In this document: piece by piece, positions 2,463 to 36,759 of the stretch | How positions within the stretch are numbered: the stretch's first letter is position 1 | Layout of the letters: each line of letters starts with the position of its first letter | Position numbers and translations under genes: made by a program | Assembly (NCBI RefSeq): GCF_030378085.1 | Contig: NZ_JAUCGK010000008.1 | Direction: 5' to 3' (one strand) | From: Candidatus Parabeggiatoa sp. HSG14 | GTDB lineage: Bacteria > Pseudomonadota > Gammaproteobacteria > Beggiatoales > Beggiatoaceae | DNA: 36,759 nucleotides | The notes under the pieces: model-generated | Databases searched by the model: none | What the model saw: only the letters and a program-made list of their open reading frames with translations | What the model was told of the DNA's origin: nothing

Positions 2463-2505
2463 GAAAAAGTCATGAAATAATTTCCCGATTTCTAATTCTC
2501 TATTG

Positions 2506-2543
2506 GTTTTAACCCCAATAGGGCGTGAATGTGAATAGCCACC
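2506..2543 (-). repeat. Dispersed CRISPR-repeat-like hairpin unit (variant, minus orientation)
   Basis: The reverse complement, 'ggtggctattcacattcacgccctattggggttaaaac', is about 33/38 identical to the 26731 unit. The shared leader 'gtcatgaaataatttccc' is at 2469-2486, matching 26700-26717. Confidence 0.75.
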
Positions 2544-2790
2544 GCTGGAACCGATGGAACAGGAAGTTATTTCGTGATCATTCCTAAAAAAGTCATCCAG
2601 ATAAATTTTGATTTAAACCTTCAAGGTTTTCAAAACCTCGAAGGTTTTTTTACAAAACAAAACTTTTTTAGATATACTTGTCCAGAAAAGTTTCGTGTCA
2701 AACCTACCAAATTTTCATCAAAGACAAAACTTTTCTGGATGAGTATAATTTTAAATTATACTTATAGTTTTTCAGGTAAATAGCTTCACA

Positions 2791-8746: not shown

Positions 8747-8880
8747 TATAGCATCAAGTTCCTAAATCGTTATTGGAACATAATTAACATATTATCGGCT
8801 CGACAAAAATCAATTGTTTATCCATATATTGAAATTTATGGCATGGCTCAATTCAGGGTAACACTCAAATTTAGTAGGCT

Positions 8881-8932
8881 GGAGTCCAAACCTTTAGGTT
8901 TGGGCATTCCAAACCTGAAGGTTTGAACTCCA
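8881..8932. repeat. Compound palindromic element (CCAAACCT..AGGTTTGG type) within a longer IR-bounded element
   Basis: 'ggagtccaaacctttaggtttgggcattccaaacctgaaggtttgaactcc'. Outer inverted 'ggcatgg...ccatgcc' and 'gggtaaca...tgttaccc' arms lie at about 8842-8956. Confidence 0.75.
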
Positions 8933-9029: not shown

Positions 9030-10553
9030 GTGAAATCATTATCTTTACAAGGACGCTTAGGCGATATCCTTTCTCTCATTGCAGGCGGACTTCTGCCATT
9101 GGCTTTTGCCCCACTTTCTTTATTTCCTCTTGCAGTATTATTACCTGCCCTGTTATTTTTGCTTTGGCAAAATATCTCTCCCAAACGCGCCTTTTGGCGA
9201 GGCTTACTTTTTGGTATTGGCTTGTTTGGTATCGGTGTCTCATGGGTGTATGTGAGTTTTCACCAGTTTGGTGGCATACCGATGATAGGTGCTATCTTTA
9301 TGACAGCAGGTTTTGTATTGGCATTGGCACTTTATCCGGCATTGCTAGGTTGGCTGTTAACACGCTTTTTTCCTAATAACACACTTTCAAAAATAGTATT
9401 AGTCTTACCAGCTGCTTGGACATTAACAGAATGGTTACGGGGTTGGTTGTTTACCGGCTTTCCTTGGTTAAATCTCGGTTACAGCCAAATTGATTCACCA
9501 TTAAATGGATTTGCGCCGCTATTAGGTGTTTATGGTGTTAGCTGGATGACAGTGTTTACAGCAAGTCTTCTCGTTTATCTTTTTAATTTCAAAAAATTGA
9601 TTATCTTGCCTATGGTGATAATAATATGGGGGAGCGGTTGGTTTTTATCGGGTGTATCATGGACTCAACCTGTGAATAAGCCATTAGATATAGCCTTAAT
9701 ACAAGGCAATGTTCCCCAAGAATATAAGTGGCTATCTAGTTTTCAGATTCCCAGTATGCAGCGTTATTTGCAATTAAGCCAAGCCCACCGTGATGCTGAT
9801 ATTATTATTTGGCCCGAAACTGCTGTCCCATTGTTTTACAGTGATGTACTTACTTACGCACCTGGCTTTTTAGAACAATTAACAGCAGAACATACCACAT
9901 ACAACACCGATTTTTTAATTGGTATTCCGATACTCTTGGAAGATGGTAAAACCTATTTTAATAGTGTGACAAGTATTGGCACGCAATCGGGTGCTTACTA
10001 TAAACATCATTTAGTCCCATTTGGTGAATACATTCCTTTTCAATCCTTTTTTGGCAATTTGTTAAAACTGCTTGATGTGCCTATGTCTGCATTTTCACCA
10101 GGTGCAGTTCAACAACCTAACCTTCATAGCATGGGAGAGCCGATAGGTGTTTCAATTTGTTATGAAGATGTATTTGGAGAATTAGTACGCAACAGTTTAC
10201 CCACAGCAACATTATTAGTGAATGTTAGCAATGATGCCTGGTTTGGTGATTCGATTGCACCCCATCAACATTTAGAAATCGCCAGAATGCGAGCTTTAGA
10301 AAGTGGACGCTATTTGCTACGTGCCACCAATACAGGGATTTCAGCAGTGATTGATGTAAAAGGTAAAATTACAGCCCAAGCTCCACAATTTAAAATCACT
10401 ACATTACGCGCCAAAGCACAACCTTATCAAGGCGTTACACCATACATTCATTTTGGTAATAGTTTGGTAATGATTTTATTATTACTGTGTATGCTAGGAG
10501 GTGTGATTAAAAGTACATGTTTTTTTTCATTTTTAGGTGCTAAAGCAATCTAA
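9030..10553 (+). CDS. lnt: Apolipoprotein N-acyltransferase
   Basis: It uses a GTG start. The N-terminal half is multi-TM, followed by a CN-hydrolase domain with the characteristic 'ICYEDVFGE' and 'VNVSNDAWFG' segments. The length of 507 aa is typical of Lnt. Confidence 0.85.
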   Translation: MKSLSLQGRLGDILSLIAGGLLPLAFAPLSLFPLAVLLPALLFLLWQNISPKRAFWRGLLFGIGLFGIGVSWVYVSFHQFGGIPMIGAIFMTAGFVLALALYPALLGWLLTRFFPNNTLSKIVLVLPAAWTLTEWLRGWLFTGFPWLNLGYSQIDSPLNGFAPLLGVYGVSWMTVFTASLLVYLFNFKKLIILPMVIIIWGSGWFLSGVSWTQPVNKPLDIALIQGNVPQEYKWLSSFQIPSMQRYLQLSQAHRDADIIIWPETAVPLFYSDVLTYAPGFLEQLTAEHTTYNTDFLIGIPILLEDGKTYFNSVTSIGTQSGAYYKHHLVPFGEYIPFQSFFGNLLKLLDVPMSAFSPGAVQQPNLHSMGEPIGVSICYEDVFGELVRNSLPTATLLVNVSNDAWFGDSIAPHQHLEIARMRALESGRYLLRATNTGISAVIDVKGKITAQAPQFKITTLRAKAQPYQGVTPYIHFGNSLVMILLLLCMLGGVIKSTCFFSFLGAKAI

Positions 10554-18533: not shown

Positions 18534-20139
18534 TAATGTTATTAGATGATTTCTCATTATCAACAGCCAACTCTTCTGTTTTGATCTGGCTTTTTACGCC
18601 GTTACTCCCATTGCTAAGTTTCGCAACTTTTGTTTTTGCAACAGTCAGATAAACTTTCTTTTTAACCATTTTACCAGTTAATGCCTTGTCAATCTCTTTT
18701 CTGTACAAATTCATCGCTTCACTGAGTTTATCTTTGGACATTACTTTTGTAGATTCCAATGAATCAAGTAAACTGTGAAGACGTTTAGAAAACCATTTTG
18801 CATATTCTTCAGATAAAGCACCTGCTAATTTATCCAAATCCTGAATAACATTTTTCGTTTTGTCGATAACATTTTCAAAAGTGTTAATGCTTTGCTTTGT
18901 ATAATCTTCCCAATCTATCTGTTTTAAAAGTTTTTCGGGATCGCCTTTTCCAAGACTACGTGATGTAGCCAATAATGTTGACTTAGTCAGTTTACCGCTT
19001 TCTTTTAGAATAGCTTTAAATAGTCCTTTTAAAAAACTGCCAAAAGTGGGAACACATCCAATCAGAGTGATTAAGAGATTTGTCCAATTTCCTATTTTTT
19101 CTCGTTCTGCATTATCGCTCAAGGTTATGATGTTTGCAGTGAGATCACGAGCGTCGCCTACTTGATCTAAAATAGGAAGCATTGTGATCACTGTGTTAGC
19201 AATAATTTGAAATGTTGTCGGTTCTTTGTTAAAGTCACCTTGAATGATACCCCAAATCAATTTTATAGGCTCTAAAACATTATCAATAAGTACATCGTAA
19301 ACAATACTCCAATGACCTGATTTTTCAGTAGGTTCTTTTTGAGTAATTTGTTTAGAAGTCAAATTGGAGGCATATATTGGATTGGATTGCGCTTCTTTAT
19401 TTGGTTTATAATCACGAGTATCCTCACCACATTCTATTTCTATTTGCCCCTCACTTACAGTAACACAGGCAATGCCTTTGTCAGAGAAAAAGCCTGTCAA
19501 TTCTTGATTGTCACTATCTTTAATTTTATAGGATGCTTTACAGACAGGTGTATCATCTTGATAGTAATAAAATAATTCAACATTAATTTTTTCTTTATCA
19601 ATTTTTTCTTTTTCACCAATGTTGATTTGTTCTTTAACAACTTTATTTTGATTACCAGTTTGTACTGATACTTGACTTTCTTTCTTTTTTAAGAATAACG
19701 ATTGCGGTGCTGTCGCTTCCACTGCCATTATGTCTTGCTCACATTCAACAACTTGCCATTGCCCATTCTTAGAAAGAATTAAATCAGGTTTACCATCTGG
19801 TGTTAAAGCGGGTTGAGCCACTATTGCTTGAAATGTTCCCTCTGTTTTTTCAGTGACACAAGCAGTCTTAGAAAATACCTCTGTACTCAATGTCGAGCTA
19901 TCCACTGATAATTCAATTAACAAGAGCATTCCCGGCGTTGAATGAATTTGTGTGGTATACTTTTTTCCAATATTTTGAATTTGTGGAAAATCTGTCTCAA
20001 TAACAACCGGTTCTCCCTTAATATTTAGAAGAGATTGTCCACCATTCAAATCTGTTTCACCATTAAAACCATCCCATGCCCAACTGGTATCAGGTTTTAA
20101 CTCAATTTTTCCACCCTTAACAACTAAAAATACTGACAT
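18502..20139 (-). CDS. Hypothetical protein (545 aa): beta-rich N-terminal region, then an amphipathic/hydrophobic helical C-terminal half
   Basis: A long minus-strand ORF. Its last 10 codons and the stop codon are encoded by a dispersed CRISPR-like repeat unit (18497-18533), so the true C-terminus is uncertain. The N-terminus 'MSVFLVVKGGKIELKPDTSWAWDG' weakly resembles Hcp/tube-protein N-termini. That resemblance is very tentative. Confidence 0.6.
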   Translation of the reverse strand: MSVFLVVKGGKIELKPDTSWAWDGFNGETDLNGGQSLLNIKGEPVVIETDFPQIQNIGKKYTTQIHSTPGMLLLIELSVDSSTLSTEVFSKTACVTEKTEGTFQAIVAQPALTPDGKPDLILSKNGQWQVVECEQDIMAVEATAPQSLFLKKKESQVSVQTGNQNKVVKEQINIGEKEKIDKEKINVELFYYYQDDTPVCKASYKIKDSDNQELTGFFSDKGIACVTVSEGQIEIECGEDTRDYKPNKEAQSNPIYASNLTSKQITQKEPTEKSGHWSIVYDVLIDNVLEPIKLIWGIIQGDFNKEPTTFQIIANTVITMLPILDQVGDARDLTANIITLSDNAEREKIGNWTNLLITLIGCVPTFGSFLKGLFKAILKESGKLTKSTLLATSRSLGKGDPEKLLKQIDWEDYTKQSINTFENVIDKTKNVIQDLDKLAGALSEEYAKWFSKRLHSLLDSLESTKVMSKDKLSEAMNLYRKEIDKALTGKMVKKKVYLTVAKTKVAKLSNGSNGVKSQIKTEELAVDNEKSSNNISFNPKGVKHE

Positions 20140-20181
20140 TTTTTTACTCTCTTTATTTGGTTGATTTTTTCATTAAAATTT

Positions 20182-20343
20182 TTCTGATTATAACGAATTT
20201 TGGGGACACCCCCCTAACCCCCCGTACACAGGGGGAAGTCCCAAAATAGAAAAATTAAAGCAAAGTGTCGAATGATGTTTGGTTCCACCCGTGTACGGGG
20301 GGTTAGGGGGGTATGGTGTCCCCAAAATCTGTTACAATCAGAA
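20182..20343. mobile_element. MITE-like element B, copy 1: about 50-bp terminal inverted repeats around a 61-bp core
   Basis: The left arm is 'ttctgattataacgaattttggggacacccccctaaccccccgtacac'. The right arm is 'gtgtacggggggttaggggggtatggtgtccccaaaatctgttacaatcagaa'. A second copy at 36605-36742 has its core in the opposite orientation. Confidence 0.8.
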
Positions 20344-20387
20344 ATTTTTGATATAATAAATTTGATGCTCAAGTTTCTTTCCAAAGC

Positions 20388-20573
20388 CTATAACTACAAG
20401 GATTACTTATAATAAAGGATTAAATCAAAACCAGATTAATGAGGAGTTATGTTATTCTCAATAACCAACGACTTTTGTTTGATGTTCATTAAGATTCATT
20501 ATGGTAGTGTTTCTTAACTAACCAATTGTGATGTTTTTATCCCTTATTATAAGTAATCCTTGTAGTTATATAG
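20388..20573. mobile_element. MITE-like element C
   Basis: It has roughly 33-bp inverted repeats: 'ctataactacaaggattacttataataaaggat' at 20388-20420 and 'atcccttattataagtaatccttgtagttatatag' at 20539-20573. These flank a core of about 120 bp. Confidence 0.7.
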
Positions 20574-23347: not shown

Positions 23348-26300
23348 ATGACAACTAACGAAACCCCACTTTTTAAATTATTGTCCGAATTTAAAATGTG
23401 GACAAATGATGATGCCTTAGATGAACAACGCTTAGTACAACATGAACTCGTCTTGGCACATCTTGCCCGTTTGTATGGGAGCCTTTATTGGAATAGCCAA
23501 GTATTTGGTTTGTGTCCACAGATACCATTGCAACTTGATATCCAAGCAGGTACGCTCTCCAAACTGGTAGCGATTACCAAAACGGGCAAGTTGATGGTTT
23601 GCGAGCAAGCCAAAATCCCTGAGTGCGATAATTCTGGTGATAGGGGGTTATTTGCTATTGCTTCGCCTTATCCATTCCCAAAGTCATTACAAAACAAGCT
23701 GCCCCATTTTCCTTTGTGTCAAGTCAAGTTGGAATGGTTGCCGTGGGAAAAAGGAAATCGGGAGATTGTTAAAACCGGTGCGGGTATTCCATTGGCGCGG
23801 ATGAAAGAAGGACAATGGGATAACTATAAACCACCTGTTGTTAATTTAGTGACTGATGACATTTTACAAAAAGAAACGGTTCATCGGGAACGAATGGAAA
23901 AATATCTTTCCAATGATGTGGAAACGTTAAAACAAAATACGCATTCCTTGAAACAGCAATTTTCCGACAGAAATTCTCATTGGGAGAGAACAGAGCAAAG
24001 TTACCAAGAAAAAAATCTTGCCTTGGAAAAACAACTGGACGATTTGAGAACGCATCATAAAAGAGGGATTATAGATATTGTTTTGTTGGGCGTTTTTGTC
24101 ATTGGGGGATTAGTTTTCTGGCATACGCAGACAATAGAAAGTCTGAAAACAGAATCCAATCAACTCAAAGTTGCTTTGGAAAACCAAATATCAGAGTTGA
24201 CTAAACAACATGGTAGTCAATTAACAAGTTTGACTAGCCAACAAATTCAAGACAAAGTTGCTTTGAAAGAGCAGATTCAAAACTTGGGAGAACAACATGA
24301 CGAAAAACTGAAAACTCAGTCAACTCAATTAACAACTTTGGATAAAAAGCACAACCAAGAACGGAAAGGACTTAAAGTTGTTTTGGAAAGCCAAATATCA
24401 GAGTTGACTAAACAACATGGCGATAAACTGAAAACTCAGTCAAGTCAATTAACAACTTTGACTGAACAACTAAAATCTGAAATTGAGCAAGTAGCAACTA
24501 CACATAATACGAATGTCAAAGAACTCAAGGATAAGTCAACTCAACTAGAAACCGCTTTGACAAACCAAAAAAATGCCTTGACTAAAAAGCATAACAACGA
24601 TTTGAAAGAGCAGTCGATTCAATTGGCAAGCTTGACTAACCAGCAAAGCCAAGACAAAGAGGAATTGAAAACAGAGTCGAATCAACTCAAAGTTGCTTTG
24701 GAAAGTCAAATATCAGAATTGACTAAACAACATGGTAGTCAATTAACAAATTTGACTAACCAGCAAATCAAAGATAAAAATGAGTTGAAAAAAGAATCCA
24801 ACCAACTCAAAGATGCTTTGGAAAGTCAAATATCAGAATTGACAAAACAACATAATAGTCAATTAGCAGGTTTGACTAGCCAGCAAAGCCAAGACAAAGA
24901 GGAATTGAAAACAGAGTCGAATCAACTCAAAGTTGCTTTGGAAAATCAAATATCAGAATTGACAAAACAACATAATAGTCAATTAGCAAATTTGACTAGC
25001 CAGCAAAGCCAAGACAAAGTTGCTTTGAAAGAGCAGATTCAAAACTTGGGAGAACAACATGGCGATAAACTGAAAACTCAGTCAACTCAATTAACAACTT
25101 TGGATAAAAAGCACAACCAAGAACTGAAAGGACTTAAAGTTGTCTTGGAAAGCCAAATATCAGAGTTGACTAAACAACATGACGAAAAACTGAAAACTCA
25201 GTCAACTCAATTAACAACTTTGACTGAACAACTGAAAACTGAAATTGGGCAGGTAGCAAGTACCCATCAAACGAATGTCAAAGAACTAAAGGATAAGTCA
25301 ACTCAACTGAAAACTGATTTGACAGGCAAAATGGATGCTTTAACTCAAAAGCATGATAACGATTTGAAAATACAGTCAACTCAACTGGAAACCGCTTTGA
25401 CAGGCAAAATTGATGTTTTGATTCAAAAGCATGACAAAGACTTGAAAGAACAGTCGATTCAATTGGCAAGCTTGACTAGCCAGCAAATCAAAGACAAAAA
25501 TGAGTTGAAAACAGAATCCAATCAACTTAAAGTTGCTTTGGAAAGTCAAATATCAGAGTTGACTAAACAACATAATAGTCAATTAACAAATTTGACTAAC
25601 CAGCAAATCAAAGATAAAAATGAGTTGAAAAAAGAATCCAACCAATTCAAAGTTGCCTTGGAAAACCAAATATCAGAGTTATCTAAACAACATGGTAGTC
25701 AATTGACAAGCTTGACTAATCAACAAAGCCAAGACAAAAAAGATTTGGAAACATATTCCAAACAACTGAAAACTGTAGAAAAGTTATCTAAACAACATGG
25801 CGATAAACTGAAAACTCAGTCAAGTCAATTAACAAAATTGGATAACAAGTTTAATCAAAACCAAAGGAAAAATGAAAAATTTTTCGACAGATTAAAAGAT
25901 GGTAGTTTAGGCCCGGCAATGGTTTGGATTCCTGCGGGGACTTTCCGTATGGGAGATATTCAAGGCAATGGCGATTCAGATAAAAAGCCAGTGCATGTAG
26001 ATGTAAAAAAGTTTGCGATAGGACGCTATGAAGTGACTTTTGCAGAATATGATAAGTTTGCCGAGGCAACGAGTAGAACACCACCTTCTGGTGGTTGGGG
26101 GCGCGGTAATCGTCCGGTGATAAATATATCTTGGGAGGATGCCACCGCTTACACCGAATGGTTAAGTCAACAAACCGGTAAACAGTATCGTTTACCCACC
26201 GAGGCGGAATGGGAATACGCTGCACGAGCGGGGACGGAGACTAAATACTGGTGGAGCAATGACATTGGCACTAATCAAGCCAATTGTGATAATTGTGGTG

Positions 26301-26590
26301 ACCGTTTTAAAAACACAGCCCCGGTGGGTTCGTTTGCGGCGAATCCGTTTGGTTTGTATGATACAGTGGGTAATGTTTGGGAATGGACTTGTTCTGAATA
26401 CGAAAGCAACTATAGTGGTAAGGAAAAAGTCTGTTTAAGTAAAGAACATTCTAATAATAGTAGCCTTTTTGTCCTGCGCGGTGGCTCGTGGGATGACTAC
26501 GCGGAAGAAACGCAATCGGCGAGCAGCAGAAAGTATTCGCGGACGTACCATCTCTGGAACATAGGTTTTCGACTCGCTAGGACGCTGTAA
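23348..26590 (+). CDS. Membrane-anchored protein: N-terminal domain, about 570 aa of tandem coiled-coil repeats, and a C-terminal FGE-sulfatase (SUMF1 / C-type-lectin-fold) domain
   Basis: A TM helix 'IIDIVLLGVFVIGGLVFWHT' sits around aa 240. About 40-aa repeats ('ESNQLKVALESQISELTKQHGSQLTSLTNQQ...') are arranged in a higher-order unit of about 290 aa that is itself duplicated, with near-identical DNA (24131-25853). The C-terminus 'MVWIPAGTFRMGD...LRGGSWDD...IGFRLART' is a canonical FGE-sulfatase domain. Confidence 0.8.
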   Translation: MTTNETPLFKLLSEFKMWTNDDALDEQRLVQHELVLAHLARLYGSLYWNSQVFGLCPQIPLQLDIQAGTLSKLVAITKTGKLMVCEQAKIPECDNSGDRGLFAIASPYPFPKSLQNKLPHFPLCQVKLEWLPWEKGNREIVKTGAGIPLARMKEGQWDNYKPPVVNLVTDDILQKETVHRERMEKYLSNDVETLKQNTHSLKQQFSDRNSHWERTEQSYQEKNLALEKQLDDLRTHHKRGIIDIVLLGVFVIGGLVFWHTQTIESLKTESNQLKVALENQISELTKQHGSQLTSLTSQQIQDKVALKEQIQNLGEQHDEKLKTQSTQLTTLDKKHNQERKGLKVVLESQISELTKQHGDKLKTQSSQLTTLTEQLKSEIEQVATTHNTNVKELKDKSTQLETALTNQKNALTKKHNNDLKEQSIQLASLTNQQSQDKEELKTESNQLKVALESQISELTKQHGSQLTNLTNQQIKDKNELKKESNQLKDALESQISELTKQHNSQLAGLTSQQSQDKEELKTESNQLKVALENQISELTKQHNSQLANLTSQQSQDKVALKEQIQNLGEQHGDKLKTQSTQLTTLDKKHNQELKGLKVVLESQISELTKQHDEKLKTQSTQLTTLTEQLKTEIGQVASTHQTNVKELKDKSTQLKTDLTGKMDALTQKHDNDLKIQSTQLETALTGKIDVLIQKHDKDLKEQSIQLASLTSQQIKDKNELKTESNQLKVALESQISELTKQHNSQLTNLTNQQIKDKNELKKESNQFKVALENQISELSKQHGSQLTSLTNQQSQDKKDLETYSKQLKTVEKLSKQHGDKLKTQSSQLTKLDNKFNQNQRKNEKFFDRLKDGSLGPAMVWIPAGTFRMGDIQGNGDSDKKPVHVDVKKFAIGRYEVTFAEYDKFAEATSRTPPSGGWGRGNRPVINISWEDATAYTEWLSQQTGKQYRLPTEAEWEYAARAGTETKYWWSNDIGTNQANCDNCGDRFKNTAPVGSFAANPFGLYDTVGNVWEWTCSEYESNYSGKEKVCLSKEHSNNSSLFVLRGGSWDDYAEETQSASSRKYSRTYHLWNIGFRLARTL
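24131..25853 (+). repeat. Intragenic tandem repeats (about 120-bp units within duplicated about 870-bp super-units) in the 23348..26590 CDS
   Basis: Near-identical DNA blocks recur. For example, 'caactcaaagttgctttggaaa.tcaaatatcagagttgactaaacaacat' appears at least six times. Confidence 0.85.
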
Positions 26591-26719
26591 CAATTGGGGT
26601 TAAGTTGGAAGAAGTTGAGATAGACAGAGAATGGTAACGAAATGTTATTTTTATAATTAATTGATGTTACGCACTCAATTTTCACAAGCCTTGGGAATGG
26701 TCATGAAATAATTTCCCCT

Positions 26720-26850
26720 CTAATTCCACCGGTGGCTATTCACATTCAACCCCTATCGGGGTTGAAACAAACCCGTTTACCTAATTCCACCGGTTCCACC
26801 GGTGGCTATTCACAGTCAACCCCTATCGGGGTTGAAACAAACCCATTCAC
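26720..26850 (+). repeat. Tandem duplication of a roughly 61-70-bp CRISPR-repeat-like hairpin unit, upstream of the LRR gene
   Basis: The units are 'ggtggctattcaca(t/g)tcaacccctatcggggttgaaac' at 26731-26768 and 26801-26838. Each is preceded by 'ctaattccacc' and followed by 'aaaccc', so the spacing sequence is itself repeated. An inverted partial unit lies at 26892-26925. Confidence 0.8.
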
Positions 26851-26978
26851 AGGTTTTGAGGTTGAAGTTTCGTTTCAGTCAAAAAACTGCCCAACCCCGA
26901 TAGGGGTTAAATGTGAATAGCCACCGGTGAAACCGGTGGAAACTGACGTGAAAACAAATAAGGAACAATTTATTTATT

Positions 26979-36393: not shown

Positions 36394-36560
36394 AACTCGA
36401 CTATCAAGTTTTTATTGTGACAGTGAAATCCAAAAGTGAGACGCGAGCATCGGAAACGCGAGCATCGCGTCTCTACATATTATTGAATTTGGTAGAGACG
36501 CAATGCTTGCGTCTCTTGCTTTGCAATGCTTGCGTCTTCTTTAATAACTGATGTTACGCA
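36394..36560. mobile_element. MITE-like element A, copy 2 (left TIR and core; the right end is replaced by the 'ttaataactgatgttacgca' motif)
   Basis: 'aactcgactatcaagtttttattgtgacagtgaaatccaa' and the core match copy 1 at about 90% identity. It ends with 'ttaataactgatgttacgca' (36541-36560) rather than the right TIR. Confidence 0.7.
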
Positions 36561-36604
36561 CTGTACTTCAAAAGTGAATACCAGAGTAGTGCAAAATGAA
36601 ATTT

Positions 36605-36742
36605 TGCTGATTGTAACAGATTTTGGGGATACCCCCCCTAACCCCCCGTACACGGGTGGAACCAAACATCATTTGACACTTTGCTTTAATTTTTCTATTT
36701 TGGGACTTCCCCCTGTGTACGGGGGGTTAGGGGGGTGTCCTC
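36605..36742. mobile_element. MITE-like element B, copy 2 (core inverted relative to copy 1; right arm degenerate, close to the window edge)
   Basis: The sequence 'tgctgattgtaacagattttggggataccccccctaaccccccgtacac' is followed by the reverse complement of the copy-1 core and then 'gtgtacggggggttaggggggtgtcc'. Confidence 0.75.
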
Positions 36743-36759
36743 AATTTTGCACTCCAGTT

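Follow-up and report, generated by a model that had tools for sequence, protein, structure and literature searches.

What are the short hairpin units that recur in a 36,759-nucleotide (nt) stretch of the genome of Candidatus Parabeggiatoa sp. HSG14 (contig NZ_JAUCGK010000008.1; hereafter the window)? An earlier note on this DNA had described five copies of a 38-nt unit with the look of a CRISPR (clustered regularly interspaced short palindromic repeats) repeat. It had named three possible origins: solo repeats derived from a CRISPR array elsewhere, a family like the repetitive extragenic palindromes (REPs), or small-RNA or terminator modules. Our analysis makes the second of these likely. We read the units as dispersed, REP-like intergenic palindromes that also form inverted doublets resembling REPINs (REP doublets forming hairpins), probably maintained by a transposase that is encoded outside the window and resembles the RAYTs (REP-associated tyrosine transposases). 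What carries this reading is that the units are intergenic, that their stems covary, that they pair up as inverted doublets, and that in related genomes they flank a Y1 transposase gene.

Direct matching finds the 38-mer intact at 26731-26768 and a copy that differs at one position at 26801-26838, with no match expected from shuffled sequence; repeat finding adds diverged copies at 18490-18546 (plus strand), 2503-2559 (minus strand) and 26892-26941 (minus strand). A covariance model (R1), trained on window and foreign copies and run across the entire window with its filters off, returned exactly five strong matches (53-75 bits, E 1e-20 to 1e-29), and the runner-up matches reached at most 18 bits and were weak or overlapped the five copies. 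The three approaches confirm the five positions that the earlier note had reported. Aligned with their flanks, the five copies reveal a unit of about 55-60 nt (roughly 57) that contains two hairpins. The first, H1, consists of CCACCGG, a loop of 3-5 nt and CCGGTGG; the linker CTATTCAYR leads to the second, H2, which reads TTCAACCCC-TATC-GGGGTTGAA, and the unit closes with AC. The 38-mer is thus too short, as it lacks the 5' arm and the loop of H1. The earlier note was right that the flanks are repeated too: the flank 'ttccaccg' that it had placed inside the repeated unit is the 5' arm of H1. Its 3' tail, by contrast, is no free CRISPR handle, because GTTGAA belongs to the H2 stem in the fold. 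Folding, which the note had proposed, gives both hairpins better than shuffled sequence in four of the five window copies (z -2.9 to -5.2), the exception being copy D with its degenerate fold. The copies, with scores from the covariance model, are:

2506-2559, minus strand: unit D, diverged (65.3 bits; alignment and fold), with H1 at 2539-2557 (CCACCGC-TGGAA-CCGATGG, plus strand), linker TGTGAATAG at 2530-2538 and a degenerate H2 at 2511-2529.
18481-18533, plus strand: unit E (70 bits; fold of -19.5 kcal/mol, z -3.5), with H1 at 18483-18489 / 18495-18501 (CCACCGA-TTTTA-TCGGTGG), linker CTATTCATG at 18502-18510 and H2 at 18511-18519 / 18523-18531.
26724-26768, plus strand: unit A (53.2 bits; fold and sequence), with the loop-less palindrome CCACCGGTGG at 26726-26735 as a collapsed H1, the linker at 26736-26744 and H2 at 26745-26753 / 26758-26766.
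26785-26838, plus strand: unit B, complete (74.7 bits; fold of -27 kcal/mol, z -5.2), with H1 at 26787-26793 / 26799-26805, linker CTATTCACAG at 26806-26815 and H2 at 26816-26823 / 26828-26835.
26890-26941, minus strand: unit C, complete and inverted relative to B (73.9 bits).

These copies occupy three sites, each directly past the 3' end of a gene: a singleton nested in a larger inverted repeat (D), a singleton fused to a gene's 3' end (E) and a tandem-plus-inverted cluster (A, B and C). Four of the five are intergenic, and copy E lies mostly under the 3' end of the open reading frame (ORF) 18502-20139. The H1 stem of unit E carries a compensatory change, in which a G-C pair has become A-T. 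Units A and B are spaced 70 nt apart, and the flanking sequence was duplicated together with the unit. Read from the sequence, the 9-nt direct repeat TTCCACCGG occurs twice in copy B and one time fewer in copy A, which explains why the H1 of copy A has collapsed. Units B and C form a REPIN-like convergent doublet that is 94% complementary. As single-stranded DNA, 26790-26938 folds with -52.8 kcal/mol (z -11.6), and a single long hairpin is possible for the pair.

The covariation of the stems, which the earlier note had pointed out, is upheld in larger alignments. Among 150 metagenome copies, 99.5% of the stem cells pair, with compensatory changes in 7 of the 12 base pairs; in a cross-phylum alignment (A6), 98.3% of the cells pair and all 12 base pairs show compensatory changes. 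When the partner columns of A6 were slid as a control, pairing fell to 30-53%. H1 appears in variants that include CCACCGAT/ATCGGTGG, CCATAGGT/ACCTATGG, CCCCGGAT/ATCCGGGG, CTATGGAT/ATCCATAG and CCGTGGGC/GCCCACGG, and H2 as CCCC/GGGG, CCAC/GTGG, GTAC/GTAC and CTGC/GCAG, with the linker (C/T)TATTnAYnTTnAA constant across the cross-phylum alignment. Judged from these alignments, the structure of the unit is under selection, and the covariation suggests that one strand forms the hairpins by itself; it speaks against a palindrome that a protein would bind in double-stranded form. Mismatches of the G-T and A-C types number 20 and 17 in H1 and 56 and 16 in H2 (the copies counted are non-independent), and the H2 loops are often UNCG-like (TTCG, TACG or TGCG).

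The family extends well beyond the window. A scan of a genome collection with the pattern CGGTGGCTATTCA...GGGGTT, whose 19 specified bases should by our own arithmetic yield some 26 chance matches, returned 35 loci. Genuine members can be told by the additional presence of the 5' arm CCACCG, for which the pattern did not select. They number 14, spread over 13 of the 35 loci, and come from metagenome-assembled genomes (MAGs) of Thiotrichaceae and of Guaymas gammaproteobacteria, two MAGs of Rikenellaceae and two unclassified ones. The units of the Guaymas MAG B20_G6 are almost identical to those of the window, and in one further locus (L010) the whole 69-nt block is present in tandem copies without unique spacers. 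The relatives of the units are those of Thiotrichaceae and Beggiatoaceae, which speaks against the cyanobacterial framing of the earlier note. A stricter pattern applied to metagenome contigs detected the repeat in at least 120 contigs or loci, mostly from three related samples, and a profile search with nhmmer detected at least 277 units in 134 sources, including at least 97 convergent pairs. Among the metagenome loci listed, the units form 141 clusters, of which 51 are singletons, 77 are doublets and 13 have three to four units, four being the maximum; 75 of the 77 doublets are convergent, plus facing minus. In these loci 246 of 252 units lie outside ORFs, and ORFs of at least 100 amino acids (aa) cover 74% of that DNA. 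A typical doublet reads GTTCCACCGATTTCATCGGTGGCTATTCACATTTAACCCCTTCGGGGTTGG, about 20 nt, CTAACCCCAACGGGGTGAAACGTAAATAGCCATAGGTGAAACCTATGGAAC. Within the main metagenome family, a doublet has different H1 sequences in its two arms, each complementary within itself, indicating that the local hairpins are the conserved feature. Neither GGCTATTCA nor its variants are present in the repeat consensus sequences of Thiomargarita nelsonii.

Which enzyme could act on such a repeat? We screened the 871 ORFs of the fetched loci (about 0.98 Mb) for units on both sides and obtained 13 candidates. One of them, at 1744-2190 of locus L145, is a Y1 (IS200-like) transposase gene (PF01797, E 1.7e-25). It is the sole Y1 gene within the fetched DNA and has at least four units upstream and at least four downstream. 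A search of a protein collection with its product returned 4764 relatives. The best 120 of these are nearly all exactly 148 aa long, share 63-88% identity and mostly occur on one to three contigs; the named carriers among them are Ca. Parabeggiatoa, Thiomargarita, Ignavibacteriae, Bacteroidia, Ferruginibacter and Gracilimonas. Several relatives bear the JGI label 'REP element-mobilizing transposase RayT'. The histidines of the HUH motif, the WQ motif and the tyrosine of YIKNQEEHH are invariant. The closest relatives in the PDB are the TnpA proteins of IS608 and ISDra2 (E about 2e-6), and the E. coli TnpA-REP chain is not among the PDB matches at E values up to 0.01.

Six homologues were chosen by protein identity and hence independently of the repeat. 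In the loci of Thiomargarita (L156, L157), Ignavibacteriae (L158) and Bacteroidia (L159, L160), no match to the model is farther than about 650 nt from the gene, and the matches occur on either side wherever the contig extends far enough. In three loci of 20 kb each (L161, L162 from Gracilimonas, and L163), the best matches directly adjoin the gene at 10001-10447, and only one other match falls below E 0.01, a weak one (L163 135-201, 13.6 bits). By a rough estimate, the chance of finding the best match that near the gene in all five protein-fetched loci is about 1e-6. Altogether, units flank the 148-aa Y1 gene in seven of seven independent loci, from Beggiatoaceae, Ignavibacteriae, Bacteroidia, Gracilimonas and others. 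In most of them a minus-orientation unit sits at the 5' end of the gene and a plus-orientation unit lies past its 3' end, so that the flanks are mutually inverted, as in RAYT genes and unlike the ends of IS200/IS605 elements. In the loci examined, no tnpB was found beside the Y1 gene, whose neighbors are unrelated housekeeping genes. With one to three contigs per protein cluster, the gene appears to be in effect single-copy, and its product looks like a domesticated enzyme.

The upstream doublet of the L163 gene, at 9716-9954, also caught our attention, since this long and regular hairpin scores up to 48.7 bits (E 3e-8) against Rfam models of plant microRNA precursors. We reject these matches as spurious; they stay below the gathering scores and are caused by the long hairpin of the doublet. 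Doublets of this kind are a possible source of false noncoding-RNA annotations.

These observations suggest how the family could be maintained. By analogy with the IS200/IS608 and ISDra2 TnpA proteins and with E. coli TnpA-REP, a single-copy HUH Y1 transposase encoded elsewhere in the genome would recognize, on single-stranded DNA, H1 together with the AATAG/CTATT foot beside it, and would cut and rejoin the DNA at the unit, probably at the replication fork. This chemistry would spread and maintain the repeat family, of which the window would hold five passive copies. In IS608 and in REPs the foot is located 5' of the hairpin; should this hold here too, the strand that is active would be complementary to the orientation used in the earlier note. 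From the same analogy we infer that the Y1 enzyme binds, cuts or moves the units and that the genome of the window encodes one.

Several observations weigh against such a REP-like reading. A tblastn search found no cognate Y1 gene in the window, and with the gene outside it the window units are tied to the Y1 gene by repeat homology only. The loci from lineages other than Beggiatoaceae (Bacteroidia, Gracilimonas and others) showed no further copies in the 8-20 kb around the gene, so that dispersal is shown for some lineages only. The GT[AG]G foot of REPs is absent; the motif next to H1 is (C/T)TATT, or AATAG on the other strand. NCBIfam assigns the Y1 protein to IS200 (73.8 bits, cut-off 55) and gives it 30.8 bits with the RAYT model NF047646 (cut-off 80). 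The subclass to which the enzyme corresponds, 1.2, has been given the REP status 'no' and described as being without the properties of insertion sequences (ISs) or typical terminal hairpins (Quentin et al. 2018, PMC6006769). Finally, the UNCG-like loops of H2 and its excess of G-T mismatches hint at selection on one strand or on RNA.

This last point leads to the alternative of a structured RNA (a small RNA, a stabilizer of mRNA 3' ends or a terminator) for which the units would serve as genes or cis-elements; the flanking of the transposase gene would then be incidental or regulatory. The strong covariation would suit an RNA as well, as would the loop sequences of H2 and the predominance of G-T over A-C in that stem. 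Relatives of the units match Acido-Lenti-1, a family of the Rfam type 'sRNA', at 23.8-28.7 bits, and the three sites of the window directly follow gene 3' ends. Nevertheless we regard the alternative as unlikely. H1 shows no comparable strand bias, the units occur in both orientations relative to neighboring genes and mostly as inverted doublets, and unit D is antisense to both of its neighbors. A run of T residues follows H2 in copy C only, on the strand opposite to the flanking genes; an intrinsic terminator on the plus strand was rejected. Hundreds of copies per genome, together with consistent flanking of the Y1 gene, are traits of REPs. The mixed orientations argue against an obligatory role as sense RNA, and the terminator proposal of the earlier note survives in a reduced form: since all three window sites follow gene 3' ends, effects of the units on mRNA ends are plausible as a secondary role. 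The REPs of E. coli also affect mRNA decay, and the REP and RNA readings are therefore mutually compatible.

A different objection is that the units might be decayed ends, or miniature derivatives similar to palindrome-associated transposable elements (PATEs) or to MITEs (miniature transposable elements with inverted repeats), of an actively mobile IS200/IS605 element. This would agree with the NCBIfam assignment of the flanked gene, with its nearest structural relatives being IS608 and ISDra2 TnpA, and with the richness of Beggiatoaceae genomes in IS200/IS605 elements, alongside unexplained palindromic repeats (PMC4853749). A mobile element would hardly, however, leave a gene of fixed 148-aa length on one to three contigs per protein cluster, set among differing housekeeping genes and without tnpB, and the mostly inverted flanking units contrast with the direct orientation of IS200/IS605 ends. 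We consider this origin improbable, somewhat more so than that of a structured RNA. The CRISPR origin with which the question began fares worst, and we hold it to be extremely improbable. What speaks for solo repeats from an array elsewhere in the genome is a superficial likeness (a GC hairpin followed by GTTGAAAC) and, in a comparison with known CRISPR repeats, a best Rfam match to CRISPR-DR60 of 15.5 bits (E 6.6), far under the gathering score of 45. Against it stand the two hairpins of a unit of about 57 nt, with GTTGAA inside the H2 stem; the absence of an array-like arrangement among the 141 clusters listed, with their inverted doublets; and the tandem copies without unique spacers in the window (A and B, where the flanks are duplicated) and in L010. 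The earlier note had itself remarked on the lack of an array and of unique spacers. In addition, a scan of the 20 largest window ORFs detected no cas domain, and in several phyla a transposase gene has units of the family on both sides. The REP-like reading thus removes a false CRISPR lead and would explain a conspicuous repeat family of giant sulfur bacteria.

The surroundings of the units in the window also bear on how they affect genes. The 18-nt 'leader' that the earlier note had seen to be shared between 2469 and 26700 is exact at both places, and we describe it here as an outer arm:

2469-2486, plus strand: outer arm GTCATGAAATAATTTCCC (exact match).
2562-2577, plus strand: partner of the outer arm, GGAAGTTATTTCGTGA (fold and sequence reading).
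26700-26717, plus strand: second exact copy of the outer arm, just upstream of the cluster of units A, B and C.

A third copy at 35834 is inverted and has three mismatches. In the single-stranded fold, 2470-2485 pairs with 2562-2577, which places unit D in the loop of a larger inverted repeat at 2469-2577. Many metagenome doublets are likewise nested in an outer inverted repeat, and the 'leader' of the window is the counterpart of that arm. At unit E the effect reaches into a coding sequence. ORF 18502-20139 (minus strand), which has a spike-tip domain of contractile injection systems at its N-terminus, ends within the unit as ...SFNPKGVKHE*. Its translation confirms that the reverse complement of unit E supplies the last 10 codons and the stop, as the earlier note had stated, the TAG stop being the reverse complement of the conserved CTA. 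Unit E has probably replaced or extended the original 3' end of this gene. At the edges of units, short tandem runs often repeat part of the outer H1 arm (AATGTTCC four times in L145 at 2215-2250 and 2355-2395, GGTGGAACGTGAA twice, and TTCCACCGG twice in the window at 26785-26802), and these duplications may be the footprint of insertion or excision chemistry, or of slippage. For annotation, such units may create or truncate gene ends, and there is a risk of taking them for CRISPR repeats, for small RNAs or for hairpins of the microRNA type.

Near the units lies a further short element, the 16-nt module TAATTGATGTTACGCA, which occurs three times in the window (18455-18470, 26658-26673 and 36545-36560; 0.03 expected). 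Two of its copies stand a few dozen bases upstream of unit sites, and the third contains TAACTGA, the heptamer of the intergenic repeats of Beggiatoaceae. The heptamer is not enriched in the window, with 5 occurrences found and 5.9 expected. Two repetitive proteins border the cluster of units A, B and C. Upstream, 23348-26590 (plus strand) encodes 1080 aa with coiled-coil-like repeats of a 120-nt period and a C-terminal FGE-sulfatase domain; downstream, 26979-29747 (plus strand) encodes a leucine-rich-repeat (LRR) protein of 922 aa with at least 21 repeats of 72 nt. The LRR start codon follows unit C after only 37 nt, and a search of 26550-27050 gave no sigma-70-like promoter. The C-type-lectin-like character of the FGE-sulfatase end led us to consider a diversity-generating retroelement, a reading that we set aside: the genes preceding the other two unit sites are unrelated, and the 20 window ORFs scanned gave no sign of a reverse transcriptase.

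The window as a whole has a GC content of 33-42%. Among its gene products are a DnaJ-TPR protein, ion channels, an Eco57I-like methylase, Lnt, the spike-tip protein, the coiled-coil/FGE-sulfatase protein, the LRR protein and a homologue of the major vault protein (MVP). The last, an 872-aa ORF at 31675-34293 (minus strand), strongly matches the eukaryotic protein, with Vault repeat domains (E 6e-68), the MVP shoulder (E 1e-51), Vault_2, Vault_3 and Vault_4; a near-complete MVP homologue is unusual for a bacterial window. Other repeats are present as well. A second family of hairpin doublets (AAACCTGnCAGGTTT twice) lies just past gene 3' ends at 2611-2647, 2787-2823, 15356-15392, 17583-17619 and 29852-29888, and has copies of 94-97% identity in Thiotrichaceae and gammaproteobacterial loci (L025, L034). 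A third, (G)TCCAAACCTTnAGGTTTGG, is arranged in tandem and inverted at 8873-8928 and 34358-34511. A 112-nt inverted repeat at 20200-20311 / 36633-36744 is 98% complementary and has internal palindromes (ACCCCCCTAACCCCCCGTACAC...); with further inverted repeats nearby at 20164/20315 and 20389/20532, the regions 20164-20570 and 36596-36744 represent other MITE-like elements.

How does this system compare with known ones? Its model is the partnership of REPs and REPINs with RAYTs (TnpA-REP), which was reportedly described in E. coli and Pseudomonas by Nunvar in 2010, by Bertels and Rainey in 2011, and by Ton-Hoang and by Messing in 2012. The present units share with that system the form of short intergenic palindromes in high copy number, the many inverted doublets with the capacity to fold as a single long hairpin, the conserved short motif beside the foot of the hairpin, and a low-copy HUH Y1 gene with repeats on both sides (at seven loci, in other genomes). 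They differ in composition, as each unit comprises two hairpins and a conserved linker of about 14 nt, whereas a REP is one hairpin, and the foot is AATAG/CTATT instead of GT[AG]G. The enzyme differs too: RAYTs belong to class 2, and the present protein is IS200-like class 1, subclass 1.2. With the ends of IS200/IS605 elements and with PATEs, the units would have in common subterminal hairpins read on single-stranded DNA by a Y1 HUH enzyme, the IS200/IS605 enzyme being the closest sequence relative of the present one. An IS200/IS605 element is multi-copy and has ends in direct orientation; here most flanks are inverted, and the gene is effectively present once.

According to Quentin et al. (2018, PMC6006769), proteins of subclass 1.2 have a median length of 148 aa and the motifs DH[IV]H, WQ and YIKNQKEHH; a genome carries on average 1.7 copies, at 36% identity, and most carriers are Cyanobacteria and Bacteroidetes. 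The present Y1 protein agrees with them in its 148 aa, in DH[IV]H, WQ and YIKNQ(K/E)EHH, in a conserved C-terminal tail and in low copy number. In contrast to the published description, its gene is flanked by units at all seven loci, Gammaproteobacteria and Ignavibacteriae included. We found no later paper in the literature that ties subclass 1.2 to repeats.

The closest counterpart of the unit itself is Acido-Lenti-1 (RF01687), an RNA motif from Acidobacteria and Lentisphaerae that was described without a link to a transposase (Weinberg et al. 2010, PMC2864571). It consists of an 8-bp hairpin CC...GG with a 4-nt loop, CUA(UU), a linker of about 12 nt and a GC hairpin of 5 bp whose loop is of the UUC type, and the present unit matches this architecture and is likewise multi-copy. 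In the seed alignment of Acido-Lenti-1, tandem copies recur at periods of 69-74 nt, similar to the 70-nt spacing of A and B here, and the Koribacter seed sequences have GGUGGGCUAUUUCAU in common with GGUGGCUAUUCACAU of the present unit. Relatives of the units in L015 score 28.7, 24.1 and 23.8 bits against RF01687 (gathering score 37; E 7.5e-5 to 7e-3). Neither the window units, at E values up to 10, nor the transposase-flanking units in L156-L160 and L163 match it, a sequence-only hidden Markov model finds no similarity between the seed and the units, and at gathering thresholds Rfam has no match in the window or in the 13 related loci. The relationship is thus a well-founded lead, with membership in the family not demonstrated.

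Taken together, these comparisons incline us, by a modest margin over even chances, toward a broader proposal: the two-hairpin repeats and the Acido-Lenti-1 class may be the cognate REPs of TnpA-Y1 subclass 1.2, in a REP-RAYT-type system that spans several phyla, belongs to the IS200 branch and uses a recognition module of hairpin, CTATT linker and second hairpin. If the link to the transposase is true, it would offer a testable function for an Rfam motif left as an orphan since 2010, and a substrate for a widespread and highly conserved Y1 subclass that was thought to have none. It would also mean that partnerships of the REP-RAYT type arose on the IS200 branch, with a recognition element made of two hairpins.

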